DNA of 62,843 nucleotides, from assembly GCA_016218865.1 (NCBI GenBank), contig JACRCU010000311.1, positions 1 through 62,843 of the forward strand. Direction: 5' to 3'. This stretch comes from Deltaproteobacteria bacterium (GTDB taxonomy: Bacteria; Myxococcota_A; UBA9042). This document shows positions 1,236 through 43,594 of this stretch, one piece after another. A program made the translations under genes and the position numbers. The number at the start of each line of letters is the position of its first letter. The first letter of the stretch is position 1. The notes under the pieces are model-generated. The model saw nothing but the letters and a program-made list of their open reading frames with translations, was not told where the DNA came from and searched no databases.

Positions 1236-1253
1236 GCCGAGATCGGGCCCCGA

Positions 1254-10071: not shown

Positions 10072-11868
10072 TCAACCCGGGTTGAACACGAACGGCCACT
10101 GGATGACGCACACGCCCGCTTCCGGCTTCATGAACTTGATGCGGCGGATGGTGCGGAGCACGCAGTCGGTGACCGACGAGTTCTTCATGGTGTCGTCGAC
10201 GATCTTGTCGTTCGCCACCGAGCCGTCGCCCGTGATGGTCCACTGTACCGTGACCTTGCCCGCCAGATCAGGCTTGGCCATCAGCTGGGTCTCGTAGCAG
10301 GCGCGCAAGCTGGCGGCGCGGGCGCGCACGTTCTTGCTGATGTCGCCCTTGTCGCAGCCGCCGGTCGAATTGCCCTGGGCGATGTTGATCTTGGCCACCT
10401 TCTTGGCCGACTTGCGGCCGATGCCCATGTCGGCGTTGCGGCCCGTGCCGCCGCCGGTGTCGATGGCGCCCAAGCCGTGCAAACGGCCGTAGCCTTCGCC
10501 GCCGCCGCCCGAGCCGGTGCCGCGGAAGCCCATGCCGCCCGAGCCGTGGCCGATGACGAGCTCGCCGCCTTCGCCCGACATCGCCACCGCCATCTTGCTG
10601 GAGATCGCGCCCGTGTCGCCGGCCATGATGTTGCCCAGCGCGCCGGTCATGGCCTGCGGGCCGCCCAGCACCTTGGCGATACCGATGTTCTTGACGTCGA
10701 CCTTGTCGCGCATCGGCCCGTCCATCTTGGGCACTTTGCTCTGCTTGTTCGGATCCTTGTCGGGATCGCCGAACTTGCCTTCTTCGCCGCCGGCCTTCTT
10801 GCCGGTGGTGTCTTCGTCCTCGCCCTCGGGCTTGATCTCTTCGGGCTTCTCTTCTTCCTTTTCTTCCACGGCCACTTCGATGAGGCCGCGGTTCTTTTGC
10901 GCCAGCGCCTCGCTCTCCAGCCGGTCTTCGTCGCTCTTGGCGACCGAGTTGACGCCGACGAACAGCACGAAGAACACCGACATCACCGTGGCGAACGACA
11001 CGGCTAGCGCGGCGTTGCGGGTGCGGTGGGTGCCGACCAGCGCGCCGGGCTGGGCGCCGGTGAAGTTGAAGTGCAGGTCGATGCCGTTTTCGAACGAGAT
11101 CACGCCCGAGTCGCCGCGGGTGATCGCGTGGCTGCCGCCCGCGTCGACTTCGTTGCCGCCGATGGTCAGGCTGCCCGAGGCGCCGCTGGGCACACTCAGC
11201 TGGTACTGCTCGGCCGCTCCCGGCGTGAACAGCACGTGCGACGAGATGCCGTTGGCGGCCAGCTGCAGCGTGTTCTTGTTGTCTTCGCCGACGGTCACGA
11301 CCGTGGGCACGAAGAACACCTTCTCGGCCACGGTCTGATCGTTCCACGCCAGGGCCACGCGCAAGAAGCGCTGGTCCTTGTGGTACTCGTCGAACGAGGC
11401 CACCGCGGTCAGGCCGCCAAAGAACGCCAGCACCGAGCCGAACACCAGCCAGATCAGGCCGTTGAGGTGCACATACGTCTCTGGAATCAAGCCGCCCGAA
11501 GCGTCGCAGAACGCCAGCTCCATCGCTTTGCAGGGCACGATGGTGTAGACCTGATCGTAGGTCAGCCACGCGAGCACGATCTGGATGAGCCCGGCCACGG
11601 CGATGCCCCAGCCGAACTTGCGCTTGCGCTGCTTGTAGATCAGCGCGCCGAGTGCCACCGAAACCAGCGACAGCAACAGCGAAACTTGACCCGTCCAGAT
11701 CTGGAAGCCGGCGATGCCTTTGTAGCCGAACTCTTCGACGTAGACAGCCGAAAACAGATTGCGCCACCCCGACGGGTCGGATTCGGCTCCGCCGCCGCCC
11801 ATGCCGAGGTTGGTGCCCAGCAGCGCGATCAGGCTGCCGATGATAGCTAAAATGGCTCCGCCGCTCAT
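10072..11868 (-). CDS. polytopic membrane protein with a TonB_C-like AgmX/PglI-type C-terminal domain
   Basis: ATG 11868 is preceded by GGAGAG. The order of regions is: about 4 N-terminal TM helices, a beta-rich segment, another TM, a Glu/Lys-rich linker, a Gly-rich tract, then the C-terminal CDKGDISKNVRARAASLRACYE...VTVQWTITGDGSV...CVLRTIRRIKF. Confidence 0.7.
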   Translation of the reverse strand: MSGGAILAIIGSLIALLGTNLGMGGGGAESDPSGWRNLFSAVYVEEFGYKGIAGFQIWTGQVSLLLSLVSVALGALIYKQRKRKFGWGIAVAGLIQIVLAWLTYDQVYTIVPCKAMELAFCDASGGLIPETYVHLNGLIWLVFGSVLAFFGGLTAVASFDEYHKDQRFLRVALAWNDQTVAEKVFFVPTVVTVGEDNKNTLQLAANGISSHVLFTPGAAEQYQLSVPSGASGSLTIGGNEVDAGGSHAITRGDSGVISFENGIDLHFNFTGAQPGALVGTHRTRNAALAVSFATVMSVFFVLFVGVNSVAKSDEDRLESEALAQKNRGLIEVAVEEKEEEKPEEIKPEGEDEDTTGKKAGGEEGKFGDPDKDPNKQSKVPKMDGPMRDKVDVKNIGIAKVLGGPQAMTGALGNIMAGDTGAISSKMAVAMSGEGGELVIGHGSGGMGFRGTGSGGGGEGYGRLHGLGAIDTGGGTGRNADMGIGRKSAKKVAKINIAQGNSTGGCDKGDISKNVRARAASLRACYETQLMAKPDLAGKVTVQWTITGDGSVANDKIVDDTMKNSSVTDCVLRTIRRIKFMKPEAGVCVIQWPFVFNPG

Positions 11869-12134
11869 GTCTCTCCACGCTCGGCCGACCCTGGATCGGC
11901 TCGGAGGGGCTGGGCCGGGCACGACCAAACGCAGGTCGCACCAAACCGGGCCGCGATGCTAGTTTCGGGGCAACCCCCCGTCAAGCGCCGTTTGCAACTT
12001 GATTCGCCACCCCGGCAATTGAGGGGCGACGCCAGACCCCAGTGCCGGGCGCGGGCTGCGGGGTCACGACTATCGACGCGCCACGCGAGCCGCCGATCTA
12101 CGGCCAACCGCGTGACGACGATCTTTTTTGGTGG

Positions 12135-14327
12135 TCAGCGGCTGGCGCCGGTGGCGGCGTGGGGAAGTGCGGGCGGTTCGCCAAAACGGCCTGAGGTATC
12201 GGCAACTTCGATGGTGTCGCCCCGCTGCACCGCCGCTTCGGGGACGTTCACCTTCGTCAGCACACCGCAGCCTGCCCGCAGCTCGGCCACGCGCACGTCG
12301 CCATGGCGCTGGTCCGTCGACCACGGCACGCGCAGCGACCAGTGCCCGTCTGCGCGCGCTGCACCGAACGCCAACCAGCGGTAGCCCTGATCGCCCACCT
12401 GCAGCAGCACTTCGGCGCGCGGTGTCTGTCCGGCGGCACAGCCGCGCCCCGCGAGCACCGCGCCTTGCACGCGCTCGAACACCTTCGCCCGTTCCCCTGC
12501 GGTCGCGTGGAGCAGCCGCCACTCGGGTCGGGCTGTGCAGCGTCCGTCGGGGCTGGCGCTGCCGTTGGCGTAGAAAAGCACTTGGGCGTTGCTGCACTCC
12601 GCCTCTCCGGTGAGCTTGCGGCTGCCGTCGGCAAGGTCGACCACGTAGCGATCGGCGGGCTGTCCGCGGGCGATACCGTAGGCGCGCAGCGAGGCGCCTG
12701 GAACTTGGGTCGCGATCCAGTAGCGGATGCGGTGCTGCGCGACCAGCTCGGGGCGATCGCCGCCGCCCAGGATCAGATCGGCGCAGGCGTCGAGCCCGGC
12801 CGTCTGTCCCGGGGCAATGAGCGGGCTGCACACGTTGGCCTGGCCGCCCCAAGCCAGCAGATCGTGGCCAAAGCCCCAGCCGGCCAGCACGGCGTAACTA
12901 GGCGTGCTCTGCGGGTTGTCGGCCTCGCCTGCGGCAGGCTCATGGGCGGCGAGCCAGTCCAGCGCCCGCCACACCGGCGCGCGCCGGGCCAATGGCAGCG
13001 GCCGGCTGGCCACATCGGCCAGGCCCGGGAGCAGCGCCAACGCCGCGATCGCGTAGGCGATGCCCGGCCGCCCCCGGCTCTCGGCCAGCTGCACCAGACC
13101 GGCGCCCGCCAGGACGGCCAGCGGCACCGCGGACAGCGTCGCAAACCGCTGCTGCAGCACGCCCAGCAGGACGCCGATCGCCAGCGCCGCCGCCCAGGTC
13201 ACATGCCTAGCCCGCTGCTCCCGCTGGCGCAGCGCCCAAAGCAGCAGCAACGGCGTGGCAAGTGCGGGCCAACTCAGCAGTTTCAGGGTGCCGGACCAGC
13301 CGTTTTCGGCGGCCGAGGTCGACTCGGCGATCAGCGCCACGTAACCCCTGCCCGCCACGAAGTCGCCGCCGCCGAACAGCGCGCGCCGCCCCGGCTCCCA
13401 GATCGCCAGTGCCACCGCCACCCCAGTCAGCCCTTGCGCGACCGCCCGCCAGCGCCCCAGCGGCCCGGTCTGCGCCCCAGCGCCCATCGCCAGCAGCGTC
13501 GCGGCCGCTACCCCCAACAACCCCGGCTGCAGCAGCGACAGGCCCTCGGCCACCACCGCCCCGCCGTGGCCCAGCGGCGAGGCCAGACCCCGCGGCAGGG
13601 CCAGCAGCGCCGCTGCGGCAAACACCAGCGCCAGACGCCGCGAAAATCCGCTTCGCTGCTCGGGTTCACTGGCCAGCAGCGCCAGCCCCGCCAGTCCGGC
13701 CAGCAGCGCCACCGTCATCGCCGACGACGGCCACAGCTCCAATGGCGCCGCGGTCAGAACAACCGCCAGCGCGACCCGCCCGACCCCCGCCGCCCGCTGC
13801 AGTCCCAACAGCGCCGCCAGGGCGGCAAAGGTGACGAGCGGCTCGGCGGCATGGTGGTCGATCTTGCCGACTTGCGTGTAGTTGTGCAGGCCGGGGTGGC
13901 AGGCGACCAGCAGACCTGCGACGACCATCGCCCGCACCCGCTGGGCCGCCGGCGCCAACTGCCCGGCCAGGTGGGCCGCCAGCACGGTGGTCGCCGCCGC
14001 ACAGCCGGTGACGAGCGCATACCCCGCCCATAGCACCGCGTTGCGATCGCCGCCGAGGCCGGCCGCCAGGGTCGCGCCCACCGCATCGAAGCCGTCTGGC
14101 CACACCACGACGTTGCCGGCGGGCACGTGGACCCAAGCGTCGCGGTGCAGCGGTCCGTGCCCCGCGGCTTGCCACAGCATGCGCCGAACGTGGTACCACG
14201 AGTCGCCGCTGACGGCGAACCAGCGGTCACCCCAATGCAAATCGGGCAAATTGCGCAGGCGCAGCGCCGCCGTCAGCCCCGCCAACAGCAGCAGGAGCAG
14301 CCGCGGCGGCACGGTCTTGCCCAGCAT
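12135..14327 (-). CDS. STT3/AglB/PglB-like GT-C membrane protein (oligosaccharyltransferase-like, non-canonical)
   Basis: About 13 TM segments plus a C-terminal soluble domain. GDSWYH (aa 41-46) resembles the first-loop acidic motif. KIDHHAAE is at aa 155-162. LIAE (aa 332-335) sits at the TIXE position. GWGFGH (aa 483-488) sits where WWDYG is expected. Confidence 0.6.
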   Translation of the reverse strand: MLGKTVPPRLLLLLLAGLTAALRLRNLPDLHWGDRWFAVSGDSWYHVRRMLWQAAGHGPLHRDAWVHVPAGNVVVWPDGFDAVGATLAAGLGGDRNAVLWAGYALVTGCAAATTVLAAHLAGQLAPAAQRVRAMVVAGLLVACHPGLHNYTQVGKIDHHAAEPLVTFAALAALLGLQRAAGVGRVALAVVLTAAPLELWPSSAMTVALLAGLAGLALLASEPEQRSGFSRRLALVFAAAALLALPRGLASPLGHGGAVVAEGLSLLQPGLLGVAAATLLAMGAGAQTGPLGRWRAVAQGLTGVAVALAIWEPGRRALFGGGDFVAGRGYVALIAESTSAAENGWSGTLKLLSWPALATPLLLLWALRQREQRARHVTWAAALAIGVLLGVLQQRFATLSAVPLAVLAGAGLVQLAESRGRPGIAYAIAALALLPGLADVASRPLPLARRAPVWRALDWLAAHEPAAGEADNPQSTPSYAVLAGWGFGHDLLAWGGQANVCSPLIAPGQTAGLDACADLILGGGDRPELVAQHRIRYWIATQVPGASLRAYGIARGQPADRYVVDLADGSRKLTGEAECSNAQVLFYANGSASPDGRCTARPEWRLLHATAGERAKVFERVQGAVLAGRGCAAGQTPRAEVLLQVGDQGYRWLAFGAARADGHWSLRVPWSTDQRHGDVRVAELRAGCGVLTKVNVPEAAVQRGDTIEVADTSGRFGEPPALPHAATGASR

Positions 14328-14330
14328 CCG

Positions 14331-15239
14331 CTACTCCGAGACGTCGTACGGCACCAGCAGCACCACGCTGGCCGAGATCATCGCCGCGTGGTCGCCCGCT
14401 GCGTCCATGCCGCCGCCCAGGTCCACGCCGACCTTGGTGGTGCGCCACGACAGGCCGCCGCACACCCAGTGGTGGGTCGCAGCGCCGCGCACGATCTGAT
14501 CGAACTGATAGCCCGCCCGCAGTTGCAGGCCCTCGGTGCCGACCTGGTAGCCCACGCCGGCGCGGTAGCTCTGGCCGTCGGCATCGCCGGCTACGGCTAC
14601 GTCGCGGTTCGCCACGCCCCACGAGCCCGACACTTCGGCGACCACCTGCGAGCCCACGAAGGCCGCACCCACCGCCACTCGCCGCGGCGCTTCGCGCGGG
14701 TCCAGTGCCAGTCCGTTGTGGATGACGGCGCCCAGGCGCACGCTTTGCAGCCCCACCGTCACACCCAAATCGCCGGTCCAGCCGTCCACGTTGCGGCTGC
14801 CCTGGCTCACGTTCAGGTAGCGCGCCGAGGCGCCGAGCAGCAGCCGGCTCGTCTCGCTCTGGCCGCCCATGCTGAGGCCCATGCGGACGTCGTGGCCGCG
14901 CCGGTGCGGAGTGTCGGTCGACCAGCCGAGCTCGCTGGCGTAGCCCACGCCGGCCGCCAGGCCCCAGGCCGAAGTGGAGTCGACGTAGCTGACGAACGGC
15001 GCGCCCGAGCCCGCTTGCCCCGATCGCGCAAACCCTGTTTCGAACCCGGAATGCTGCACTTGGCTCATGCCGGCCGGGTTGCTGTACAGGGCGGCGCCCG
15101 CCACCCCAGAGGCCACCTGCGCATCGGCCGTGCCCAGCGAGGTGGTGCCGGCGCCGGCGGGCCGGTACGGTCCCATGCCGCACAACAGCCACCAAGCGCA
15201 GGCGACAACCAGCGGATTCCAGAAGCGATGCACGTTCAT
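14331..15239 (-). CDS. small outer-membrane beta-barrel, FadL/PorV-like
   Basis: Signal peptide present. The N-terminal GTADAQVASGVAGAALYSNPAGMS matches the NPAG motif typical of FadL/PorV-type barrels. The remainder has an alternating Gly/aromatic beta-strand pattern. Confidence 0.55.
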   Translation of the reverse strand: MNVHRFWNPLVVACAWWLLCGMGPYRPAGAGTTSLGTADAQVASGVAGAALYSNPAGMSQVQHSGFETGFARSGQAGSGAPFVSYVDSTSAWGLAAGVGYASELGWSTDTPHRRGHDVRMGLSMGGQSETSRLLLGASARYLNVSQGSRNVDGWTGDLGVTVGLQSVRLGAVIHNGLALDPREAPRRVAVGAAFVGSQVVAEVSGSWGVANRDVAVAGDADGQSYRAGVGYQVGTEGLQLRAGYQFDQIVRGAATHHWVCGGLSWRTTKVGVDLGGGMDAAGDHAAMISASVVLLVPYDVSE

Positions 15240-15255
15240 GCGGTCCCTGTTGCGG

Positions 15256-15936
15256 TCACGAAGTCTTCTTGTCGGCCGCCTTCTTCATGCGCGCGATCAG
15301 GCCCGACCAGCCCTCTTTGCCCAGGATCTTAGCAAAGTTTTGCCGATAGGACTGCACCTGACTGGCGTCGTCGACCACGATGTCGAACACCCACCAGCGG
15401 CCGTCGCCGGGCAGCAGTTGGTAGTTCACGTCGGCGCTGGTGCTCTTGACCGTGAGCACCGTTTGCACCTCGCTGCGGCCGCCGGGCAGGTTGCGGGTCT
15501 GCTTGTAGGTAATCTCGACCGGCGTCCCCGGCTTGAAGCGCTTGACGTAGGTGTTGATCACCATCCGGGTCAGCAGCTGGGTGAATTCGGTCTTCTGCTC
15601 GGGCTGCAGCCCGTCCCACTGGGTGGGCAGCGTCAGCTTGGCCATTTCGGCAAAGTCGATCACGCCGCGCAGTTCGTCGCCGATGGCCTTGTGCAACGCT
15701 GCGAGATCGCTGGTCGACTTCGCCAGCTGGTCCAGCTTGCCCGACAACCCGGCGATGAATTTCTGCGGGTCGCCAGCCGGCTTCTTGGGGCCGGCGGGTG
15801 CGGTAACGGGCGCAGGTGTCGCCGGGGCTGTTGCCGCCGGGGCCTTGGCGGGCTTGGCGGCCTTGGGCGCTGCGGCGGCGGGCAGGGCGAACGACGCCAC
15901 GACCACGAACGCAGTGAATTTGCAGAAACGGAGCAT
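15256..15936 (-). CDS. MlaC/Ttg2D-family periplasmic lipid-binding protein
   Basis: Signal peptide followed by an Ala/Pro/Lys linker. Family-typical segments are DFAEMAKLTLPTQWDGLQPEQKTEFTQLLTRMVINTYVKRF and WWVFDIVVDDASQVQSYRQNF. Confidence 0.8.
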   Translation of the reverse strand: MLRFCKFTAFVVVASFALPAAAAPKAAKPAKAPAATAPATPAPVTAPAGPKKPAGDPQKFIAGLSGKLDQLAKSTSDLAALHKAIGDELRGVIDFAEMAKLTLPTQWDGLQPEQKTEFTQLLTRMVINTYVKRFKPGTPVEITYKQTRNLPGGRSEVQTVLTVKSTSADVNYQLLPGDGRWWVFDIVVDDASQVQSYRQNFAKILGKEGWSGLIARMKKAADKKTS

Positions 15937-16003
15937 GGTCTTCCTTGGGCACGCTGCGCCGCGCTGGCGCCTGCTACTGCAACGCGGGCGCGCCGGTCGC
16001 GAT

Positions 16004-17389
16004 TCAGTGGCCGGGCTCGGCGAGCTGGGTCAGATCCATGCCCACCGCCCGCGACAGGGCTGCCACCGCCAGGGTGTAGTTGAAGATCGACTCGGCGTAG
16101 GTCATGCGCCGGCGGGTGTAGGCCTCCATGGCGCGCAGCACCTCGGCGAATTCTTGAAAGCCGTCTTCGTACGCCTGGTTTTCGGCCGACAGCCAGCCGC
16201 GGGCCGACTTGAAGGCGCGCTCCTGCACGTCGATCATGGCGCGGGCATCGACCATTTCGCGGTACATCTGCCGCACGTCCATGCGCAGCTTGGCGCGCTC
16301 GCCCTGCTCCAACAGCGCCGCTTGCTTGGCGTCCAGGTCGGCCTGGTCGATCTTTTCGAGCTGGCGCATCGGGTCCAGGCTCCACCGCAGCGCCAGACCC
16401 AAGCCCGAGGTCGCGGAGTTGTTGGGGTTGGTCGCCAGCGAGTCGGGCGTGTCCGCGCGGGTCGGCGCGTAGGTGTAGGCATAGCGGGCCACCAACACCA
16501 GATCCGGCAGGAACTGATTTCGCGCAAGTTGGGCTTGCATCAGGCGGACTTGCACGCCGCCGCGCTGGGCCAGCAGCCGCGGCGAGTTGGCCAGGGCCAG
16601 CGTCTCGATCTGCTGCATGGGCAGCGGCGGCACCACCACTGGCGTCAGCTCGCCCGCGGCCTCGATCGCCAGTTCCGTCGACTCGCCGAGCGCCAGTCGG
16701 ACGCCGTCTTCGGCTTGGCCGCGCGACCGGTCGAATTGCCGCACCTTCTCTTCAATATCGGCGGAAAACACGTTCAGCTTGGCCAGGTCGGCTTGGTTGA
16801 AGCTGGCGTCGCCCTCGTCGCGGGCTTTCTCGATCTTCTCGCGCTGTTCTTGCATCAGCCGCTTGCCGTCGGCGACCAGATCGCGCAGCTCGGCGACCAG
16901 CACCAGGCCCCACCAGGCGCGCGCCAGCTGGAAGCGCATCTCGTCTTCGGCGATGCGGCCGGTGACGCGCGCGATGTCCACGCCCTGGCGGGCCATGTCC
17001 TTCAGGGTCGAGATCTTGCCAAAGGTGAACAACGTCTGCCCCATGCTGACCGAGGTGACCAGCAGCGGGCCGAACTTGGTGAAGTCGTAGTCCTGCAGCG
17101 GCGTGGAGCCGTCGTGGCCGTCTTTCAACTCGGGCAGCGCTGTGCCAAAGGCGCTGATGTCGAACTTGGGATACCAAGCCGACTGGGCTTCGCGCAGCTT
17201 GCTTTCGTACTGGTCCAGGCCCAGCCGGGCGGCGGCAAGCAGGGGCGACTGCTTCTTGGCGCGCGCCAAGCACTGCTCAAAAGTGCAGCGCAATTGCCGC
17301 GGTTCGGCCTCGGCCTGCCCGACCAGGGCCAACGCCGTCACCATCGCCAACGCCCCGGCCACCGATTTGCGCACGTGAGAGTGGTACAT
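16004..17389 (-). CDS. TolC-family outer-membrane factor
   Basis: Signal peptide (ALALVGQAEA). It has the two-repeat helical architecture of the family, with LEQCLARAKKQSPLLAAARLGLDQYESKLREAQSAWYPKF. Confidence 0.8.
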   Translation of the reverse strand: MYHSHVRKSVAGALAMVTALALVGQAEAEPRQLRCTFEQCLARAKKQSPLLAAARLGLDQYESKLREAQSAWYPKFDISAFGTALPELKDGHDGSTPLQDYDFTKFGPLLVTSVSMGQTLFTFGKISTLKDMARQGVDIARVTGRIAEDEMRFQLARAWWGLVLVAELRDLVADGKRLMQEQREKIEKARDEGDASFNQADLAKLNVFSADIEEKVRQFDRSRGQAEDGVRLALGESTELAIEAAGELTPVVVPPLPMQQIETLALANSPRLLAQRGGVQVRLMQAQLARNQFLPDLVLVARYAYTYAPTRADTPDSLATNPNNSATSGLGLALRWSLDPMRQLEKIDQADLDAKQAALLEQGERAKLRMDVRQMYREMVDARAMIDVQERAFKSARGWLSAENQAYEDGFQEFAEVLRAMEAYTRRRMTYAESIFNYTLAVAALSRAVGMDLTQLAEPGH

Positions 17390-17392
17390 GTT

Positions 17393-18886
17393 CTAGAATC
17401 CTGACTTGAGCGGCACGCGGTCGACGGTATGGGCCAGCAAATTCCAGGCCGCCAGATAGGCGCCCTCGGCGCCCAAGCCGCAAAAGCTTGCATCGCCGCC
17501 GATGAGGATGTTCTTGTAGCCCGTGGTGGTGGCCAGCGGGCTGGTGCCGACGGTGTGGGCAATGGCCTCGCCGTAGCCCGGCTGCAGCTCGCCCGGATCG
17601 ATGTCCTCGGCGCCGTCTTCGCCCCGCTGCAGCCACGGCGTGTGGCGGTGCAGCAGGTGCTCGCCCAGGAAGGGCAAGGTGTCCTCGACGCGTTTCTGCA
17701 GGCGGTCGAGGAGCATGCGTGCTGCCGGCGCGCCGCCCGAGGCCACGCTGATCGGCACCCGCATCGCCGCCGAGATCAGCCGCACCTCGCGATCGTCGGC
17801 GCTGGTGCCGATGTCGGCGTCGCGGGCGATGTGGATCAGGTTGTCCTCTTCCAGCGACTGGCTCAGGTCGGCCACCGCGAACACGTGGCGGGCCATCGCC
17901 TCGGGCACGGCGCGGGCGCGCACCACGAAATTGCCCACGAAGGTGTGGCAGATTGGCTGCAACGTGTGCAGAACGTGATGGTATTCTTCGTTCTGTTGCT
18001 CTTGCGGGATGAGCGCGGCAAAGCGCTTGGGGTCCATGTTGCAGACCACCATCTCGCAGCCGATCACCTCGCGGCGGTCGCGCAAGACCACACTCTGTGC
18101 CTTGCCGCGGTGCACCTGGATCGACGACACCATCGCCCGCGGTCGCACGTCGCCCGAGGTCTGGATGATCGACGAGAACAGATCGCGCAGCGCGTTGGGC
18201 CCGCGGTCGAACACGGCCGTGCCGCGCCACAGTTCGGTGACGGCGCGCACGAAGGTGGCCGGGTAGGGCCGTGCCGGCACCATCCCCGACACGAAGCGGA
18301 ACGGCGCCTGCACGAACGCGCGAAACGGGTGGCCGTGGGCAAAGCGCGCCAGCGGGTCTTCCAGCGCCCACTCGTCGTCCAGGATCGGGTACTTCTTGAC
18401 CAGCGAGCGGAAGCGGAAGGTCTCGACCAGACCCGTGGGGGGCAGCACCGGGCGGACCTTCAGCACCTCGTCGACCTGGCCGTCGATCTCGCTGACGCGG
18501 CGGAAGAACACGCCGATCTCGGAGTCCAGACCGGGGAATTCGCGGCGCAGCTCGCGCTCGAGCAGGCGCGGCTCGGTGCCGACGTTGATGCGCGCCTTGG
18601 GCAGCACCACCTGGAAGGCCGGCTCCAGCGGCCGCGGCAGGTTGCGCAGCTCCAGGCCCAGGCTCAGCTCGTCGAACACGCGGCGGGCCGCCAGCGAGCC
18701 CAGGGCGTAGTTCAAGTCCAGGCGCCGGCACAGGGTGTGGCCCTGGTGCTCGTACAGCGCCCCACTGCTGCCGTGCGCCACCACCAGCACGCGGTAACCG
18801 CGCTTGGCGCAAAGCGCACCAAAGATCAGCCCGGCCAGGTCGGTGCCGATGATGACGACGCTGTAGTGGGAAGAGACCTGGCTCAC
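17393..18886 (-). CDS. phytoene-desaturase/amine-oxidase-like FAD/NAD(P) oxidoreductase homologue with atypical dinucleotide motif
   Basis: The N-terminal YSVVIIGTDLAGLIFGALCAKRGYRVLVVAHG is Rossmann-like, but GxGxxG reads GTDLAG. The C-terminal ILIGGDASF is typical of the family. Confidence 0.7.
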   Translation of the reverse strand: MSQVSSHYSVVIIGTDLAGLIFGALCAKRGYRVLVVAHGSSGALYEHQGHTLCRRLDLNYALGSLAARRVFDELSLGLELRNLPRPLEPAFQVVLPKARINVGTEPRLLERELRREFPGLDSEIGVFFRRVSEIDGQVDEVLKVRPVLPPTGLVETFRFRSLVKKYPILDDEWALEDPLARFAHGHPFRAFVQAPFRFVSGMVPARPYPATFVRAVTELWRGTAVFDRGPNALRDLFSSIIQTSGDVRPRAMVSSIQVHRGKAQSVVLRDRREVIGCEMVVCNMDPKRFAALIPQEQQNEEYHHVLHTLQPICHTFVGNFVVRARAVPEAMARHVFAVADLSQSLEEDNLIHIARDADIGTSADDREVRLISAAMRVPISVASGGAPAARMLLDRLQKRVEDTLPFLGEHLLHRHTPWLQRGEDGAEDIDPGELQPGYGEAIAHTVGTSPLATTTGYKNILIGGDASFCGLGAEGAYLAAWNLLAHTVDRVPLKSGF

Positions 18887-19016
18887 GCGACCCGCTTGCC
18901 GCCTCCTCCACCTGGGGCGGCGCGCGCAAGCCTAGCGCAACAGGGCCTGCGGCGCCATTGTCGCCACGGGCTTGCGCTGCGGGTTCGGCAGGGTAGGCTT
19001 GCCGGCGAGGCAGGCG

Positions 19017-20423
19017 ATGGACGGCGGGCAACGACACGCGGGGCGGGCAAGCAAGTGGGCTCCGCCGCTGCTGGTCGCGGCGGCGTGGCTGATCAGCACC
19101 CTGGCGGCGCACCACCTGGGGCTTGCGCTGCAGGCGGATCTGGGTCGCAGCTGGCAAGTGTTGGACCTGGGTGCGCTGCGCGACCACCTGGGCCAGAGTC
19201 TGTGGTACCAGCACAGTCAGCCGCCGCTGTGGAACTTGCTGATCGGTGGGCTGCTCCGCGCTGGTGTGGATCCGGGCGGTGCATTGGTGCACGCCGCGTT
19301 CGACGCGGTCGGCCTTGCCATCGCGCTGCTGACTTGGCGCACCGCGATCGGTCTCGGCGCCGGTCGCTGGTGGGCAGCGCTCGCGGCCTGCCTGTTGCTG
19401 GCGTCGCCGGGCTTTGCCTTGACGATCCACTGGTTGTTCTACGATGCGCCGGTTACGCTGGGGATCCTGGCGCTGCTGCTGAGCTTGGCTGCGGCCGCCG
19501 ACCGGCCGACGCTGCCGCGCCTGGCGGCGCTGACTCTGACGGTCGCGGGGCTGGTCTGGCTGCGAAGCGTCTTTCATTTTGCCTGGTTGCTTGGTCTGCT
19601 CGCCCTGGTGCTGGCCGACCGCGCGCTGCCGCGGCGGCGGCTCCTGGGGGCCTTGGCGGTGGCGCTGCTGCTGGCGACACTGCCGTTTGTCAAGAATGCC
19701 GCGGTGTTCGGAACCTTCTCTTCCAGTTCCTGGGCCGGCATGAGCGTGCAGCGGCTCACCAAGACCATGCTGAGCCCGGCGGAATTGCAGGCTGAGATCG
19801 CCGCCGGCCAGCTGGCGCCCAGCAGCGCCGTCGGGCCGTTCCAGCCGCTCGAACGCTACGGTCCGCTGCCCAAAGTCCCCGCCGATCTGGCGGCGATCGC
19901 CGTGCTCAGCGCTCCGCACAAGGCCACTGGCGAGACCAACTTCAACCACTACGGCTACTTGGAGTTGTCCCGCCAGATGGCCGGCGACGCGGTGCGGCTC
20001 GCGCTGCGCCATCCCGGCGCCTACTTGCGGGCCCACGCCGCGGCGTGGCTGCAGTGGCTGCGGCCGACCGCCCTGGACACCAATTTGGGCGAAGGTCGCA
20101 AGGTGCTCCGTCCGTGGGTCGACGTGTGGGATCACTTGGTTCTGCTCGACGTCGGCCAGGTCTTCGTGCTGCTCGCCCTTGGCGCGCTGCTGGCCCTGGC
20201 TCTGCTTGTCGATCGCCTGCGGCCGCGCACCGTGGCCCAGCTGCCCGCCCCACAGCGCGCGCTTTGGCGGGCTGCGGCCTGGACCGCGCTGTGGATCACC
20301 TTGCTGGGCAATGCGGTAGAGTACGGCGAAAACTATCGCTTTCGCGCCTACATCGACCCGCTGCTGCTGGCGACCTTGGCCGTGGCGGCGACCCAGCTGC
20401 AATCCCGCTTGCGCAGGCCGTGA
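19017..20423 (+). CDS. polytopic GT-C-like (ArnT/PMT-like) membrane protein
   Basis: More than 10 predicted TM helices. The first periplasmic loop reads QSLWYQHSQPPLWNLL. The start is uncertain (the ORF opens at 18972, first ATG at 19017). It is divergent from the 17393..18886 operon. Confidence 0.5.
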   Translation: MDGGQRHAGRASKWAPPLLVAAAWLISTLAAHHLGLALQADLGRSWQVLDLGALRDHLGQSLWYQHSQPPLWNLLIGGLLRAGVDPGGALVHAAFDAVGLAIALLTWRTAIGLGAGRWWAALAACLLLASPGFALTIHWLFYDAPVTLGILALLLSLAAAADRPTLPRLAALTLTVAGLVWLRSVFHFAWLLGLLALVLADRALPRRRLLGALAVALLLATLPFVKNAAVFGTFSSSSWAGMSVQRLTKTMLSPAELQAEIAAGQLAPSSAVGPFQPLERYGPLPKVPADLAAIAVLSAPHKATGETNFNHYGYLELSRQMAGDAVRLALRHPGAYLRAHAAAWLQWLRPTALDTNLGEGRKVLRPWVDVWDHLVLLDVGQVFVLLALGALLALALLVDRLRPRTVAQLPAPQRALWRAAAWTALWITLLGNAVEYGENYRFRAYIDPLLLATLAVAATQLQSRLRRP

Positions 20424-20477
20424 AACTGCCGCACGATTCGCCCCCCGCTGCCGCTCCCTGGCAGCCAAGGTGCCGCG

Positions 20478-21356
20478 ATGGCCGAACCGAGCATGGACCC
20501 TCTGCAGGCCGGTTTCCCGCTGCTGAACAAGCGCGCCCTGCTGACCGTCGCCGGTGTGACCGCCCTGGTGTGGGTGACCGCCGCCATGACGGGCAGCATG
20601 ATAGTCCTCATCGGCGTTGGCATTTTGACCGCTGCGCTGGCCGGCCTGCTGTTCTGGGCGTGGCGCCAGGCGCAGAAGCAGACCAAGATGATGCAGCTCC
20701 TGCAGCAGGCCCAGGGCTCGCCCGAGGCCCGCAAGGCCGCGCTGGAGCAGCTGGCGGCCCAGGATCCCAAGGGGGCCGACGCCATCGGGCAGATCGCCAA
20801 GGCGCAGATCGAGGCCCAAGAGAACCCCGACAAAGCCCTGGAGACCCTGCAAACCATCGACTTGTCTAAGGTTCCGGCCGAGGCGGCCGATCAAGTTCGC
20901 ACCTTCCGCGCCCAACTGCTGCTGCTCAAGAACCGCACCCGCGAAGCCCGCGATCTGGCCGATCAGATCAACGTGCCGGCCAGCGGTCCCAAAGCGGCGC
21001 GGGCGATGATGGCGGCAGTGGTGGCCGAGTCCTATGCCCGCACCGGCAAGGCCGAGGCCGCCCTGACCCTGCTGGAAGAGTGGAAGCTCAGCGACCCCGA
21101 GCTGGAGCAGATGAAGCCGATGCTGCTGTACGCCAGCGTGTTTGCCAACTTTGCCGCGGGCAAGAAAGAGCGCGCCAAGAAAGACATGAAGGCGCTGATG
21201 GAACTGGACATGAACCTGCTCGGCCGCTTCGTCCAGCCCGGCCCCGGCATCCACATCGAGCTGCGGCAGATCGCCGGCGAGGTCCTGCAGGGGCACCCGG
21301 ACATGCGCAAGATGGCGCGCGCTCAGCAGAATATGATGCACAAGCGCATGCGCTGA
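20478..21356 (+). CDS. membrane-anchored helical-repeat protein
   Basis: Two N-terminal TM helices are followed by a TPR-like alpha-helical body. No family was recognised. Confidence 0.6.
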   Translation: MAEPSMDPLQAGFPLLNKRALLTVAGVTALVWVTAAMTGSMIVLIGVGILTAALAGLLFWAWRQAQKQTKMMQLLQQAQGSPEARKAALEQLAAQDPKGADAIGQIAKAQIEAQENPDKALETLQTIDLSKVPAEAADQVRTFRAQLLLLKNRTREARDLADQINVPASGPKAARAMMAAVVAESYARTGKAEAALTLLEEWKLSDPELEQMKPMLLYASVFANFAAGKKERAKKDMKALMELDMNLLGRFVQPGPGIHIELRQIAGEVLQGHPDMRKMARAQQNMMHKRMR

Positions 21357-21451: not shown

Positions 21452-22495
21452 CTACGGGGTGAACAAGTACCACCACGCCGGCATCGGCGCGGGATCGCCG
21501 TCGCTGCCCGCCTGCAACTCGGCATCGGCGGCCACCGGACTCTCGCTCACCACGCCGTGGGCACTGCCAAATGCGCCCAGACCGGTGACCGGTGACCACG
21601 AGGTCCCCAGGCCCAGGGCGATCCAATTGGCCGAAATCTTGTTGAAGTCGCCGGCCGTCTTGTCTGCCAGGCCGAACCACGCACTGGCCGGCGTCTGCGC
21701 CGCGCTGGCGATCCACGCCGCCGGGCCCTGTGCCGTGCTGTCCAGCGGGCCCTGCAGCAGCACCACCCGCGCCACCTTGCGCACCTTGCCGATGAATCCG
21801 GCGTGGCCGGCGCCTTCGCCGTGGCCGACGACCACGATGTTCTGCCACAGCGGCGTGCTGCCGGCCACGTAGTTGCCCCAGCCCTGACCGGGGCGGTGCT
21901 TGACCAGCCACTGCAGGGCCAGGGCCAGGCGCTGCTCGATGCAGTTGTTGAAACCGACCTTGATCTTGTCGCTGCGGTCCTGGCCGTCGAGCACTTCGTG
22001 GCGCACGTACTCGTAGCAGGTGCTGTTCTCGCCGCACAGGCTGGCGGCGCTGGGGTTGGCGGGGTAGGCCAGACCCAGTACGCGGTGGCCGCGCTGGGCC
22101 GCCACCCACAGGATCTTTGAATAATCCTTGGGTTGCATGTTGCTGCCCGGCAGCAGCACCACCAGATCGCCGCTGCTCGGCACGGCGGGGTCGAAGATGG
22201 CCAAGTGGTCGCCGAATTCGCCGCTCACGCCCGTCTGGGTGTCGGTGGCGGGGACGAAGCTGTCGAGGGCGTCGGAGTTGGGGGCGGCGGTCGCATCGTC
22301 CGCGGTACCGCCCAGGTCGGCCGCGGCGTCGTTGGTCTTGCCGATGCCGCCGCCCGTGTCGCCCGCGAGCACGGTCGTTCCGCCGCTGCCCGGCGTGGGC
22401 ACAGGGTTCACCACACAGCCGGCCGGAATCAAGACCAGCCACCCGATCAGCCAGACCAAGGCGCGGGCCGTTGGGCGTGCGAGCGGTGCGATCAT
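21452..22495 (-). CDS. lipoprotein, alpha/beta-hydrolase-like with Ser-less nucleophile elbow
   Basis: ATG 22495 overlaps the upstream stop as ATGA (22495-22492). Lipobox LVLIPAGC followed by an acidic linker. IVVVGHGEGAG sits where GxSxG is expected. Confidence 0.65.
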   Translation of the reverse strand: MIAPLARPTARALVWLIGWLVLIPAGCVVNPVPTPGSGGTTVLAGDTGGGIGKTNDAAADLGGTADDATAAPNSDALDSFVPATDTQTGVSGEFGDHLAIFDPAVPSSGDLVVLLPGSNMQPKDYSKILWVAAQRGHRVLGLAYPANPSAASLCGENSTCYEYVRHEVLDGQDRSDKIKVGFNNCIEQRLALALQWLVKHRPGQGWGNYVAGSTPLWQNIVVVGHGEGAGHAGFIGKVRKVARVVLLQGPLDSTAQGPAAWIASAAQTPASAWFGLADKTAGDFNKISANWIALGLGTSWSPVTGLGAFGSAHGVVSESPVAADAELQAGSDGDPAPMPAWWYLFTP

Positions 22496-24396
22496 GGCGA
22501 TTCCTCTTGGGCTGCAGCAGCAACTTCTGGTGATTTTGCCAGTTCCGCCCCCATGTCGCCAGTTGCCTGGGTCGCGGGCAGACCGGCCTTGGCGTCGCTG
22601 ACGCGGTGGATCTGCGAATGCCGGCGGTCGCCGAATAGTGCACCGGGCGGTCGGCGCGGGAATTCCACAACGAAACGGGCGCCGCCCAGACTGGGGCTCC
22701 GCTCGACGCGCACGCGCCCGGCGTGGGCCTTGACGTGGCGCGCCACCGTCGCCAACCCCAGACCGGTGCCCTGCGAGCCCTTGGTGGTGTAGAACGGCTC
22801 GAAGATGCGCTCGCTGTCGGCGGGATCGATGCCGGGGCCGCTGTCGTCGACAGCCAGCTCCAGCCAATCGCCCTCGCTGCGCAGCGAGACGGCGACCTGG
22901 CGCTGTTCGACTTCTTGCACGGCGTGGGTGGCGTTGATGAGCAGGTTCCACAGCACCTGCCGCACCAGGGCGGCGTCGCCGATCAGCGTCCAGCGCTCGC
23001 CTGGGCCGTCGGGCGTGGCTGGCGGCATGAGCTGCACCCCAGTCGCCTGCACCGATGGGCTCTGCAGACACGCCTGCACCGTCTCGCACGCCAGGCTGTA
23101 CAGGTTCACCTCGCCGAACTGCAGCGGACGCGGGCGCGCAAAGTCCAGGAATTCACCGATCCACTCGGACAGCTGACCGGTCTCGCGCACCACGATGCCC
23201 ATCAGCAGCCGCTCGCTCTCGTCCAGCCGGCCCGCGCCTTGCAGCATCTGCACCGCTCCCGAAATCGACGCCAGCGGGTTGCGGATCTCGTGCGCCACCG
23301 CCGAAGCCAGCGAGCCCACCGCCGCCAAGCGCTCGCGGGCGCGATGCTCTTCTTCGCGGGCCCGGACGTCGGTCACGTCGCGCAGCACCAGCACGCGACC
23401 CCACTTGCCGCCGGGATCGCGCAACGGCGCTACGCGCACCGCCAGCATCTGCGGCTTGCCCCCGGCCGACTTGCGGGCGATCTGCTGGGTCGAATGGATG
23501 CTCTGCGGCTCGGGGCGCGCCAGCTCCCACTCGCCCGGCGGTCCGGCCAGGGCCTGCTCGATGTCGGGAACCGTCGCGGCCAGCGGGCGACCCAGCAGCT
23601 GTTGCCGGTCCATGCGCAAAATCATCTCGGCCGCCGGATTGGCCGCGGTCACCAGCCCGTTGGGGCCCACGGTAATCAAGCCGTCGGGCAGGCTGGTCAC
23701 CACATCTTCGTAGTGGACGCGCAGACTTGCCAGCTCACTGCGCTGCTGCTGCGCGCGCCGGCGGGCCCGTTCCAGCTCGCGAACCAGGTGCGAGGTCAGC
23801 ACTGCCGTGGCGTAGGCGGCGGCGACCTGCAGCGCAAGGTTGCTAGCAATCTCGAACGGTGTCGGGCTCTTGACCACCGGGAGCGCCGACAAGTACGCCA
23901 CCCGCAGCCGCGGCAGCGCCAGCCAGCCGATCTCGTCCAGCGACATCGCCACCATGCCGGCCGCCACCACACTGGCCGCCAGCAGCGAACCCAGCCTATT
24001 AAGTAGGATTGCGGCGTTGAGCACGGCCAGCGGCAAGCCGAACAGGAACAAGCTCTGCATGCCGCCGGTGGCGTGCACCAGCACCAGCGCCAGCACCTCG
24101 TCCAGCAGCACCGACGTCCAGGTCAGTCGGACCAAGAATCGGTTGTGATTCTGCCCAATTTGCGCGAGAAGCAGCAGGACGAAACTGACGCCATAGGCGA
24201 CCGCGGCCAGCTGGTACAGCAAGGTCTCGGGCGCGGCAGCGGCCTTCTGCGGCGCCATCCCCAGGTCCACGGCCACGGCAAAGGCCAGGACGCCGGTGAT
24301 GACCAGCACCCGCGCCAGCGTCGTCCACTTCAGGCGATCGACTAGGGTGTCGTCGGCCACGGCCGATTCGCCGACGGCGGGCTCCTGGTTGGGCAT
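22492..24396 (-). CDS. PilS-like sensor histidine kinase
   Basis: About 6 N-terminal TM helices, a PAS-like segment, H-box AHEIRNPLASISG, and the N/G1/G2 boxes of HATPase_c (WNLLINA, DSGPGI, GTGLGLA). It starts 6 nt downstream of pilC. Confidence 0.8.
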   Translation of the reverse strand: MPNQEPAVGESAVADDTLVDRLKWTTLARVLVITGVLAFAVAVDLGMAPQKAAAAPETLLYQLAAVAYGVSFVLLLLAQIGQNHNRFLVRLTWTSVLLDEVLALVLVHATGGMQSLFLFGLPLAVLNAAILLNRLGSLLAASVVAAGMVAMSLDEIGWLALPRLRVAYLSALPVVKSPTPFEIASNLALQVAAAYATAVLTSHLVRELERARRRAQQQRSELASLRVHYEDVVTSLPDGLITVGPNGLVTAANPAAEMILRMDRQQLLGRPLAATVPDIEQALAGPPGEWELARPEPQSIHSTQQIARKSAGGKPQMLAVRVAPLRDPGGKWGRVLVLRDVTDVRAREEEHRARERLAAVGSLASAVAHEIRNPLASISGAVQMLQGAGRLDESERLLMGIVVRETGQLSEWIGEFLDFARPRPLQFGEVNLYSLACETVQACLQSPSVQATGVQLMPPATPDGPGERWTLIGDAALVRQVLWNLLINATHAVQEVEQRQVAVSLRSEGDWLELAVDDSGPGIDPADSERIFEPFYTTKGSQGTGLGLATVARHVKAHAGRVRVERSPSLGGARFVVEFPRRPPGALFGDRRHSQIHRVSDAKAGLPATQATGDMGAELAKSPEVAAAAQEESP

Positions 24397-24402
24397 GGCG
24401 GG

Positions 24403-25611
24403 CTACTTGATGTTGTCGCCCATCGTAAAGATCGGCGCGTAGAGGGCGATCATGATGGTGCCGACGATGCCGCCCAGGACGAGCATGATGAGCGGCTCCA
24501 TCATCGACGTCATGCCATCGATGGCCTCGTCCACTTCCGAGTCGTAGAAGTCGGCGATCTTGCCCAGCATCACGTCCATGGCGCCGGTGGCCTCGCCCAC
24601 CGCGATCATCTGCACCACCATCACTGGAAAGATCTGGGTCTCCATCAGCGGGCCCGTCACGTTGCGGCCTTCCATGATCTTGTTGCGCGTGTAGTCCACG
24701 CCGCGCTCGACCACCAGGTTGCCAGACGTCTTGCCCACGATCGCCAGCGCTTCGATGATCGGCACACCGGCCGCCACCAGCGTGCCCAGGGTGCGGGTGA
24801 ACTTGGCCACCGCGCCTTTTTGCACCACGTTGCCGATGATCGGCCCGTGGAACAGCAGCCAGTCGCGGATGTACGGGCCCTGCTTGGTCTTCATCGCCAG
24901 CTTGTAGGCCACGCCCAGCGCCACCAGGCCCGCGCCCAGGAACGGCGCCTTGGCCAAGAAGCCGTCCGAGATGTCGACCACCGCCTGGGTGATGCCCGGC
25001 AGTTTGGCGCCCATCGACTGGAAGGTCGAAGCGAAACTCGGCACCACCTTCCACAACAGGCCCACGGTAATCGCCAGCGACACGGTGAGCACCGTCAGCG
25101 GGTACTTCATGGCGCCTTTGATCTTCTTCTGCGTTTCCGCGGCCTTTTCGATGTACTCGGCCAGGCGGTTCATGATGGTGTCCAAGATGCCGCCCATCTC
25201 GCCGGCCTGGACCAGGTTGACGTACAACTCTTCGAACACCTTGGGATACCGCTTGAGCGCGTCCGAAAACGACGAGCCGCCTTCCACCGACGCCTTGACG
25301 CCCAGGATGGTCTTCTTCAACTGCGGGTGCGGCTCCGAATTGCCCACCAGATCCAGCGCTTGTACCAGCGGCAGACCGGCGTCGATCATCGTCGCCATCT
25401 GCCTTGTGAAAATCACCATGTTCTTGGTGGGCACGCCGCCGCCCAGGCCGGGGATCGTCAGGTCGAGCTCGAGCTGCTTGCGCTTGAGCTTGATGATGTT
25501 GACGCCCTGCTGCTTGAGCTTGGTCCTGGCCTCGGCCTTGTTGGCGGCATCGACCTCGCCCCGGCGAAAATCACCTTCGGCGCTCGTCCCTTCCCATTGC
25601 CACATCGCCAT
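24403..25611 (-). CDS. pilC: type IV pilus platform protein PilC (GspF family)
   Basis: Two GspF repeats, with typical FTRQMATMIDAGLPLVQAL and FTRTLGTLVAAGVPIIEAL segments. Confidence 0.9.
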   Translation of the reverse strand: MAMWQWEGTSAEGDFRRGEVDAANKAEARTKLKQQGVNIIKLKRKQLELDLTIPGLGGGVPTKNMVIFTRQMATMIDAGLPLVQALDLVGNSEPHPQLKKTILGVKASVEGGSSFSDALKRYPKVFEELYVNLVQAGEMGGILDTIMNRLAEYIEKAAETQKKIKGAMKYPLTVLTVSLAITVGLLWKVVPSFASTFQSMGAKLPGITQAVVDISDGFLAKAPFLGAGLVALGVAYKLAMKTKQGPYIRDWLLFHGPIIGNVVQKGAVAKFTRTLGTLVAAGVPIIEALAIVGKTSGNLVVERGVDYTRNKIMEGRNVTGPLMETQIFPVMVVQMIAVGEATGAMDVMLGKIADFYDSEVDEAIDGMTSMMEPLIMLVLGGIVGTIMIALYAPIFTMGDNIK

Positions 25612-25639
25612 GGTGCACCCCTACCCGTCGGGCCGTTCG

Positions 25640-27379: not shown

Positions 27380-27624
27380 GGAGTTGAACCTCGGCGACAG
27401 CGGCACATCTGGGCACAGCCCCGCGCCAGACGGCTCGGAGCGAATCCGGCAACGGGCAACACAATGAACCATGCCGTCCGGCCTACCGGTCGGGCAGCTT
27501 CATCGCTCACACCGTAGCAGATGATGCGAAATCCGCAATCGCGCGGGCGCCAACCCAACCCCGCCGGCCGAGGCCATGTGCCGCCTCGCCGGGGAGTGAT
27601 GAGCCTGAATGTCCGGGAAAAGTC

Positions 27625-28785: not shown

Positions 28786-28913
28786 GGGCTTCTCCACAGC
28801 GTGCGCCGCTGCTCGCCCCAAAGTATGCCACGAATCGAGCGGTGTCGCGCGTCGCCGTCAACCCCCCCGGCACTGACCGGGGTGTCGCCGCCCCAGGGCG
28901 CGATCGACCCAGC

Positions 28914-43399: not shown

Positions 43400-43594
43400 T
43401 CCGCTGGCGGCGCTGCGCCGATGTGCGCGACCGGGAGCTGTCTGCGGCCGTGGTCGCCGTGCGCCGGGGCGATGGCAGTCAGGGGGCGGCAGCGTCTAAT
43501 TGCGGCATTCGCGACAGGAATTTGCAGTTGTCTCCCATTTGACACTGCAAGCGAGGGAATGGTACCGTTGCCGGGACCTCTCTGGGAGGAGATC

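Follow-up and report, generated by a model that had tools for sequence, protein, structure and literature searches.

The nearest functional analogues of the locus reported here use proteins of the MlaC family. The Mla system is generally held to run in the retrograde direction (PMC10665443), and HpnM-HpnS-HpnN is a proposed hopanoid transport route in which an MlaC paralogue has been proposed to serve isoprenoid lipids, HpnM and HpnS having been described in Alpha- and Gammaproteobacteria (PMC12324291). Beyond a few model Proteobacteria, the delivery of non-phospholipid or specialised lipids to the outer membrane is poorly understood. We analysed a five-gene cluster encoding an MlaC-family protein at 12135-18886 (minus strand) of contig JACRCU010000311.1 from a metagenome-assembled genome (MAG) of Deltaproteobacteria bacterium (assembly GCA_016218865.1; Myxococcota_A, UBA9042). 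This whole contig of 62,843 bp, hereafter the window, was the visible part of the genome and was annotated to ~47 kb. The reading we prefer, at a probability of about 0.45, is that the five genes are co-transcribed as one envelope operon of an uncultured freshwater Myxococcota lineage, and that their products carry a hydrophobic lipid, possibly an isoprenoid, across the periplasm by a route extended here by an oligosaccharyltransferase-like enzyme with a non-classical acceptor.

The open reading frame (ORF) list placed the five genes exactly where the initial annotation had put them, with the same gaps between them:

17393-18886, minus strand: gene 1, CrtI-fold protein, 497 aa, GTG start
16004-17389, minus strand: gene 2, TolC-family protein, 461 aa
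15256-15936, minus strand: gene 3, MlaC-family protein, 226 aa
14331-15239, minus strand: gene 4, FadL/PorV-type barrel, 302 aa
12135-14327, minus strand: gene 5, AglB-type STT3, 730 aa

The intergenic gaps are 3 nt (17390-17392), 67 nt, 16 nt and 3 nt (14328-14330). All five frames have the coding signature of a GC content far higher at third than at second codon positions, in a contig of ~69% GC. The gap of a few nt between gene 1 and the TolC-like gene suggests that the two may be translationally coupled. Profile annotation of the six proteins considered initially, these five and a divergent neighbour, together with structure models of the gene 1 and gene 4 products, supported the assignments TolC/OEP, MlaC, barrel fold, AglB-type STT3 and CrtI fold. 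All parts can be placed in known folds or families, but three lack a defining motif or score below a curated threshold. In full-text literature searches we came across neither the gene combination nor an STT3 variant lacking the WWD motif, in agreement with the earlier remark that no described pathway combines these genes. The chief interest of the locus lies in this WWD-less bacterial STT3 branch, in the probably flavin-free CrtI-fold family and in an MlaC module with outer-membrane partners other than MlaA.

Conservation and stepwise growth of the gene cluster

A profile of the CrtI-like protein was scanned against GTDB species representatives. The scan gave 157 loci, all in Myxococcota-type MAGs, of which the best 80 were retrieved. 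Annotation with the window's proteins was performed on 86 loci (numbered with the prefix L), with start codons in the related loci picked heuristically, and a simple neighbour-joining tree was built from the CrtI-like protein. The same five genes were found in the same order in 7 non-identical loci of other MAGs, with differing flanks and with STT3 identity down to 41%; contigs carrying STT3 homologues at 72%, 46% and 41% identity all kept the five-gene order between unrelated flanks. Since the arrangement recurs in 7 non-identical loci whose flanks differ, it is not a product of chance. The junctions remain at a few nt or overlap across deep divergence, both from the MlaC-like gene to the barrel gene and at the two others measured: the CrtI-like to TolC-like junction is mostly -4 to +16 nt, and the barrel to STT3 junction is 3, -4 or 40 nt. 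This neighbourhood check bears out the tight, conserved unit that had been proposed initially.

The same comparison gave a different picture of the unit's age. In Sandaracinaceae/Polyangiales MAGs the CrtI-like gene, at ≤32% identity, stands by itself, and in distant clades (L005, L049, L052-L086) it is followed by glpD or by pilT/pilC/pilS, not by transport genes. The trio of CrtI-like, TolC-like (OEP) and MlaC-like genes was found in ~18 loci at 31-41% identity of the CrtI-like protein. The barrel joins at 58-76% identity, and the quartet without STT3 was found in ~19 loci. In the tree, each addition forms one clade, and there is a single loss of STT3, in L016-L018, with fpg following the barrel gene in L018. 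In L063, STT3 lies between the barrel gene and a convergent Trm112-like/GT4 gene pair; the same neighbours are present without STT3 in L004, L026 and L030. The operon appears to have been built by successive additions at its 3' end: the CrtI-like gene, then the TolC-like and MlaC-like genes, then the barrel, then STT3. The unit is a nested accretion with STT3 as a late accessory and not one ancient module. Such stepwise growth provides a natural experiment, with close relatives that have or lack the barrel and have or lack STT3.

The CrtI-like family without the GxGxxG motif is Myxococcota-wide, in 157 species representatives, and its gene lies almost always just downstream of purM(-purN). Six records (L019, L020, L023, L028, L029 and L030) are titled Klebsiella pneumoniae or 'uncultured Enterobacteriaceae' and carry the Myxococcota-type cassette; these bins appear to be mislabelled.

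Families and altered motifs of the five products

An AlphaFold2 model of the gene 1 product had a mean confidence (pLDDT) of 91. Its best Foldseek matches in the PDB, at E 5e-18 to 6e-15, were the carotenoid enzymes CrtI (4dgk, E 5e-18) and CrtD (4rep, template modelling score, TM, 0.70), together with phytoene desaturase (PDS, 5mog) and 3ka7. Sequence models gave much weaker matches. The best curated model was CrtD (TIGR02733) at 50 bits against a cutoff of 550, and NAD_binding_8 reached 19.4 bits, under its gathering score of 21.9. The dinucleotide-binding motif is degenerate (G14-T-D-L-A-G), and strand beta2 ends in VLVVAH, with the acidic residue missing. The motif G-x-[D/E]-L-x-[G/A] was present in 27/27 aligned homologues. 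Among 87 Myxococcota relatives, none had GxGxxG and none had an acidic residue at the end of beta2 (0/87 in both cases); the second motif position was mostly D, E, Q or R, and beta2 ended in VLVxGQ/H. Alignment to flavoproteins showed the G-to-D and E/D-to-G replacements directly and revealed that the GG(R) motif after beta2 is also lost across the family. CrtI, CrtD and PDS thus resemble gene 1 in overall fold (TM up to 0.70), with CrtD as its best curated sequence model, but they differ in having GxGxxG, the acidic beta2 end and GG(R). Gene 1 in turn scores an order of magnitude under the equivalog cutoffs, and carotenoid genes are not adjacent to it.

Because the canonical flavin adenine dinucleotide (FAD) motif was found in 0/87 members, the gene 1 family is probably not a classical FAD binder and not a flavoenzyme or desaturase. 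The label FAD-oxidoreductase used in the initial annotation therefore keeps its CrtI/phytoene-desaturase fold but probably loses its flavoenzyme identity (0/87 with GxGxxG), while the non-canonical cofactor motif reported there, GxDxxG with a beta2 end without an acidic residue, was found as described. The only hydrophobic stretch in the hydropathy profile is the Rossmann beta1-alphaA segment, and the product is cytoplasmic. A phylum-wide CrtI-fold family shorn of its flavin motif provides candidate lipid-handling pseudoenzymes.

Gene 2 matched Pfam OEP (PF02321) at 138 bits over two stretches, corresponding to two repeats, and encodes a signal peptide without a lipobox. Its score against the TolC subfamily model TIGR01844 was 69 bits, under the cutoff of 225. 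These matches clearly predict a TolC-family outer-membrane factor. Neither a periplasmic adaptor (membrane fusion protein, MFP) nor an inner-membrane pump for it was found in the operon or the related loci; its partner could be encoded elsewhere in the genome. Gene 3 encodes a signal peptide, a linker of ~45 aa rich in Ala, Pro and Lys, and an MlaC domain at residues 72-219, which matched Pfam MlaC (PF05494) at 113 bits against a gathering score of 26. MlaC-like structures 11hy, 8dte and 2qgu were matched by sequence in the PDB. The gene 3 product is predicted to be a bona fide MlaC-family periplasmic lipid-binding protein. Its closest curated model is HpnM (TIGR03481), at 78 bits under a cutoff of 160.

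Like the Mla system, the operon has an MlaC-family protein with a signal peptide, here co-encoded with outer-membrane proteins, which implies a periplasmic lipid shuttle. In contrast to that system, MlaA, MlaD/MCE, MlaE, MlaF and MlaB are not linked to it, the candidate partners at the outer membrane are a TolC-family protein and a FadL/PorV-type barrel, and CrtI-fold and STT3-like proteins are co-encoded. Two features are shared with the HpnM-HpnS-HpnN route: an MlaC paralogue outside a canonical Mla operon, with HpnM as the closest curated model, and the co-encoded protein with the fold of an isoprenoid enzyme. The operon differs from it in its Myxococcota host and in the score of gene 3 under the HpnM cutoff. 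None of hpnN (RND), hpnS (MlaA-like) and shc (squalene-hopene cyclase) was seen in the annotated parts of the window, where no carotenoid, hopanoid or glycan-assembly cluster was found either. Identification of gene 3 as HpnM, and of the locus as part of a hopanoid or carotenoid cluster, was rejected, as scores were below the curated cutoffs and the pathway genes were not found.

The gene 4 protein of the window had no Pfam match at E ≤ 5, and its score against PorV2 was 15.7 bits under a cutoff of 325. One of 25 homologues matched Toluene_X (PF03349, 4.6e-6). In an AlphaFold2 model built from 25 homologues, moderately confident at pLDDT 75, 14 strands form a barrel and the N-terminal helices a hatch; the top PDB folds were PorV (6h3i_F/8gl6_F), OmpG and TodX (6z37). 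N54-P55-A56 was invariant or nearly so in the 25 homologues; we take it to be the NPA signature of FadL-type hatches. The modelled barrel thus resembles FadL, TodX and PorV in strand number, N-terminal hatch and NPA motif. It differs from FadL and TodX in being much smaller (~265 mature residues) and lacking a Pfam match, and from the PorV of the type IX secretion system in that genes of this system are not nearby.

Predicted extracellular loop 5 of the barrel (residues ~209-222) carries an insertion of 8-9 residues with an invariant Asn (A-N-R-D / N-G-D) in L001, L002, L007, L009, L016-L018, L022 and L063. The loop-5 peptide of the barrel includes GVANRDVAVAGD. The insertion is limited to the clade that gained STT3 and to its STT3-less daughter lineage, and the invariant Asn is not in an N-X-S/T sequon.

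Proteins of the STT3/AglB/PglB family (GT66), which pass a lipid-linked oligosaccharide on to Asn of a protein, have a polytopic N-terminal domain of ~13 transmembrane segments followed by a soluble periplasmic or luminal C-terminal domain. Their WWDYG (WWDxG) motif binds the Ser/Thr at position +2 of the sequon, in a pocket completed by a DK or MI motif. Hydropathy analysis gave the same architecture for gene 5, which is polytopic to about residue 440 and continues as a Cys-rich soluble periplasmic domain (441-730). An exact-sequence look-up of the window protein gave no match; a homologue search placed it at locus tag HY902_11260. The window protein had no PF02516 match even at E ≤ 5; some homologues carry this annotation as a precomputed one. 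It scored 28.5 bits against AglB_L1, over the gathering score, and 101 bits against the archaeal STT3 model TIGR04154, under the cutoff of 450. A profile of 13 homologues matched AglB-L of A. fulgidus (AfAglB; 5gmy/3waj) at E 4e-17, with residues 9-560 and 615-715 aligned.

Three catalytic elements were invariant in the 13 homologues: D42 (SGDSWYH), D157-H-H159 (GKIDHHAAEP) and E335 (LIAES). D42, D157-x-H159 and E335 align with the Asp of external loop 1, the D-x-H motif and the TIXE Glu of external loop 5 in AfAglB. The WWDYG motif is replaced by G-W-G-F-G-H-D (483-489) in the window and by [GS]-W-[GSA]-[FYLI]-G-H in the clade, aligned directly to SWWDYGN of 3vu0 and WWDYGH of 5gmy. After this stretch the clade has Q/P at an AfAglB D and a near-invariant R548 at an AfAglB K, a match to the DK-motif columns that is uncertain. 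Of the non-canonical STT3 motifs suggested initially, the change thus concerns the WWDYG sequon reader, and the catalytic residues are canonical. Gene 5 resembles archaeal AglB/STT3 (AfAglB-L) in its polytopic and periplasmic architecture, including the AglB_L1 unit, and in its catalytic motifs. Unlike these proteins it has WWDYG replaced, scores under the curated thresholds, has a bacterial host and sits in a lipid-carrier operon without a glycan-assembly cluster.

A search of 1.84 billion representative proteins with the gene 5 family profile gave 2,335 matches at E ≤ 1e-3, of which the best 146 representatives outside the clade were examined. Catalytic residues were kept in 135-142 of the 146. 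The first Trp of WWD was Trp in none of them, the Asp was kept in 33, and those tested against the curated archaeal STT3 model were all under its cutoff. Since these non-clade representatives share both the catalytic residues and the loss of WWD, the altered pocket is no oddity of this operon; it is a trait of a large bacterial branch of STT3 that is uncharacterised and comprises at least 146 representative clusters. An STT3/AglB branch with an intact catalytic centre and no WWD reader bears on the evolution of N-glycosylation and on glyco-engineering. Within the operon, gene 5 diverges much faster than its neighbours; in L002 the identity is 41% for STT3 and 72% for the CrtI-like protein.

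Proposed route and rival explanations

From the predicted families and their gene order, we infer the substrate class, the transport direction, the partnership of the MlaC-like and outer-membrane proteins, and the activity and acceptor of STT3 as follows. The CrtI-fold protein, which has no flavin signature, would bind or handle a hydrophobic, possibly isoprenoid, molecule rather than desaturate it. The MlaC-like protein would serve as a periplasmic shuttle for a lipid or other hydrophobic molecule, linking the inner membrane to the components in the outer membrane. By analogy with MlaC-MlaA or the proposed HpnM-HpnS pair, its partners would be the TolC-like protein and, in the later clade, the FadL/PorV-type barrel with a lateral gate, in place of an MlaA-like lipoprotein. 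The operon would then be a conserved module of small size, based on MlaC, in which TolC-like and FadL-like partners take the place of MlaA. In the youngest sub-clade, which includes the window, an AglB-type STT3 was added that would transfer a glycan from a polyprenyl-phosphate donor in the periplasm. Gene 5 most likely still performs this transfer, because its metal-binding and catalytic residues are intact. The Ser/Thr-recognising WWD pocket is gone, which argues that the acceptor would not be a classical N-X-S/T sequon. The acceptor is most likely a protein tied to the module, and the Asn-bearing loop-5 insertion of the barrel, which arose in the same clade, is a candidate lead.

Several observations weigh against this proposed route. 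All carriers are MAGs. The CrtI-like gene is an ancestral neighbour of purM across Myxococcota, often alone or beside glpD or pilT; it may be linked to the transport genes by position only, and four lineages have 2-5 kb of intervening genes between it and the TolC-like and MlaC-like genes. An inner-membrane transporter (ABC, RND or MCE) is unlinked in the window and in the 86 loci, with L006 as the sole exception. Lipid-biosynthesis genes and genes for a glycan donor (lipid-linked oligosaccharide, LLO) are not adjacent in the annotated window. N-X-S/T sequons are not enriched in the TolC-like, MlaC-like and barrel proteins, and no sequon specific to the STT3 clade was found. In the two nearest outgroups examined, P0117 and P0015, the STT3 gene is solitary. 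Finally, the lineage that lost STT3 has kept the loop-5 insertion, which amounts to one evolutionary event.

Part of this evidence suits an accretion without a shared pathway, in which the TolC-like and MlaC-like genes, the barrel and STT3 were inserted behind a purM-adjacent CrtI-like resident at a permissive transcribed site and serve unrelated envelope processes such as phospholipid homeostasis, efflux and general protein N-glycosylation. The phylum-wide purM-(purN)-CrtI-like synteny, the distant clade where glpD/pilT/pilC/pilS follow and the TolC-like and MlaC-like genes are missing, the 2-5 kb of intervening genes in L034-L038, the solitary STT3 outgroups, the STT3 loss that left the quartet in place and the faster evolution of STT3 (41% against 72% in L002) all fit this explanation. 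We nevertheless consider it unlikely. The few-nt or overlapping junctions (CrtI-like to TolC-like, MlaC-like to barrel and barrel to STT3) were kept over deep divergence, and every added gene was kept throughout its clade despite the turnover of flanks. In addition, identity of the CrtI-like protein rises from ~30% to 58-97% in the clades with transport genes, suggesting an added constraint. The route might also run inwards, a slightly less probable case than accretion, with the FadL-type barrel admitting an exogenous hydrophobic molecule (for example an isoprenoid or long-chain compound from prey or the environment), the MlaC-like protein carrying it in the retrograde direction and the CrtI-fold protein binding or processing it. 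Barrels of the FadL/TodX family take up hydrophobic substrates, predatory and saprophytic lifestyles are common among Myxococcota, and the barrel here combines an invariant NPA hatch motif with fold matches to TodX and PorV. The retrograde direction of Mla agrees with uptake as well (PMC10665443). Set against it, TolC-family proteins serve as exit ducts, and no other partner is coupled as tightly as the TolC-like gene; the barrel came late to a trio that exists without it; the CrtI-like protein lacks the redox cofactor motif that catabolic processing would need; and an inner-membrane importer is not linked.

Highly doubtful, in our estimate, is the model of the initial annotation, in which the STT3-like enzyme, working at the periplasmic face, adds a glycan to a lipid-linked or hydrophobic acceptor that is not a protein, and the MlaC-like, TolC-like and FadL-like proteins then deliver the glycoconjugate to the outer membrane or surface. 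It would account for the position of the STT3-like gene, which closes a lipid-carrier operon and either overlaps the barrel gene or lies 3 nt from it. An acceptor other than a sequon would fit the abolished WWD pocket with kept catalytic residues, no sequon signal was seen in the proteins of the operon, and other GT-C families act on lipid acceptors, such as ArnT on lipid A. However, we know of no GT66/STT3 enzyme with a non-protein acceptor. The x-W-x-x-G-H motif occurs in at least 146 outgroup representative clusters, and the two examined outgroups are solitary; the pocket change is for these reasons older than, and independent of, the arrival of the gene in the lipid operon. The four transport genes are found, and have been retained, without STT3, and genes for a glycan donor are not linked. 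The early pocket change and the independence of the quartet weaken the model, and lipid glycosylation followed by export found support in no result here. A narrower combination is equally a long shot: that an enzyme of the WWD-less GT66 branch was recruited to glycosylate a non-sequon acceptor, either the transported lipid or a surface loop of the barrel, and that its CrtI-fold partner is a flavin-free lipid or isoprenoid chaperone. If true, this would be a previously unknown envelope pathway joining GT66 chemistry to lipid transport. In favour of the periplasm-crossing lipid route with a late STT3 extension are the recurrence of the five genes between differing flanks, the nested additions, the short junctions, the motif states of the STT3-like and CrtI-like proteins, the loop-5 insertion and the HpnM/HpnS precedent.

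Operon boundaries and neighbouring genes

Two intergenic regions delimit the operon:

18887-19016, no strand: divergent spacer upstream of gene 1, 130 nt, sequence read
11929-12134, no strand: gap at the 3' boundary of the operon, 206 nt past the STT3 stop

The length of 130 nt given initially for the spacer is correct if the plus-strand neighbour begins at ATG 19017; its frame is also open from a TTG further upstream, at 18972. The operon promoter presumably lies in this spacer, and GGAGGAGG forms a Shine-Dalgarno-like run ahead of the GTG start of gene 1. By a simple consensus scan the divergent spacer lacks a sigma-70 promoter, and none of the terminators was convincing; there was no Rfam match in 11000-21000 at E ≤ 0.1. 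At the other end, the 206-nt gap contains a sigma-70-like site, TTGACG-17-TAGCAT (11984-11956, minus strand), placed to serve the next gene, which is GltG/AgmX-like. Since this site faces the next gene, the operon most likely ends at 12135.

The divergent gene (19017-20423, plus strand) encodes a 468-aa protein that is polytopic by hydropathy. It had no Pfam match at E ≤ 5, no NCBIfam match and no PDB sequence match better than E 1.2, and as these searches were all empty we rejected as unsupported the 'GT-C-like' label it had been given as a second such protein. The downstream gene (10072-11928, minus strand) is preceded by a promoter-like site of its own and is kept only in the closest relatives, L001, L007 and L008. 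Its 618-aa product ends in an AgmX/PglI (TonB-C-like) domain and matches the gliding-motility protein GltG below threshold. The divergent gene, the GltG/AgmX-like gene and the other immediate flanks were rejected as module members because they recur only in these three loci.

Pfam and NCBIfam annotation found no ABC, RND, MlaE or MCE/MlaD gene inside the operon, as had been stated initially, and the annotated window likewise has no linked partner. Of the 86 loci, the trio-bearing L006 holds the only copy of the cassette with an inner-membrane lipid-transport partner nearby: a 533-aa MlaD protein with Helical_needle and Aq_493_lipo domains (17893-20255 of that locus, minus strand) and an ABC ATPase lie ~4 kb from the MlaC-like gene. 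In the window, an MsbA/PglK-like ABC half-transporter (ABC_membrane and ABC_tran; 1236-3092, plus strand) is found 9 kb away from the operon, with synteny in L001 alone. It could be a lipid or LLO flippase.

The wider flanks of the window hold pilS/pilC/pilB, hisS, an arginase-family gene, an alpha/beta-hydrolase gene and glycolytic genes. The type IV pilus genes in 22495-28857 (minus strand) encode a pilS-like kinase, PilC (T2SSF) and PilB (T2SSE and MshEN), and are followed by a gene for a 410-aa protein with a peptidoglycan-binding domain and a Tae4 amidase domain of the type VI secretion system type. Further along, a 753-aa protein with Cys-rich MopE-type metal-binding and Dictyostelium CTDC repeats is encoded at 43400-45658 (plus strand), and an ORF of ~1,669 aa occupies 52377-57383.

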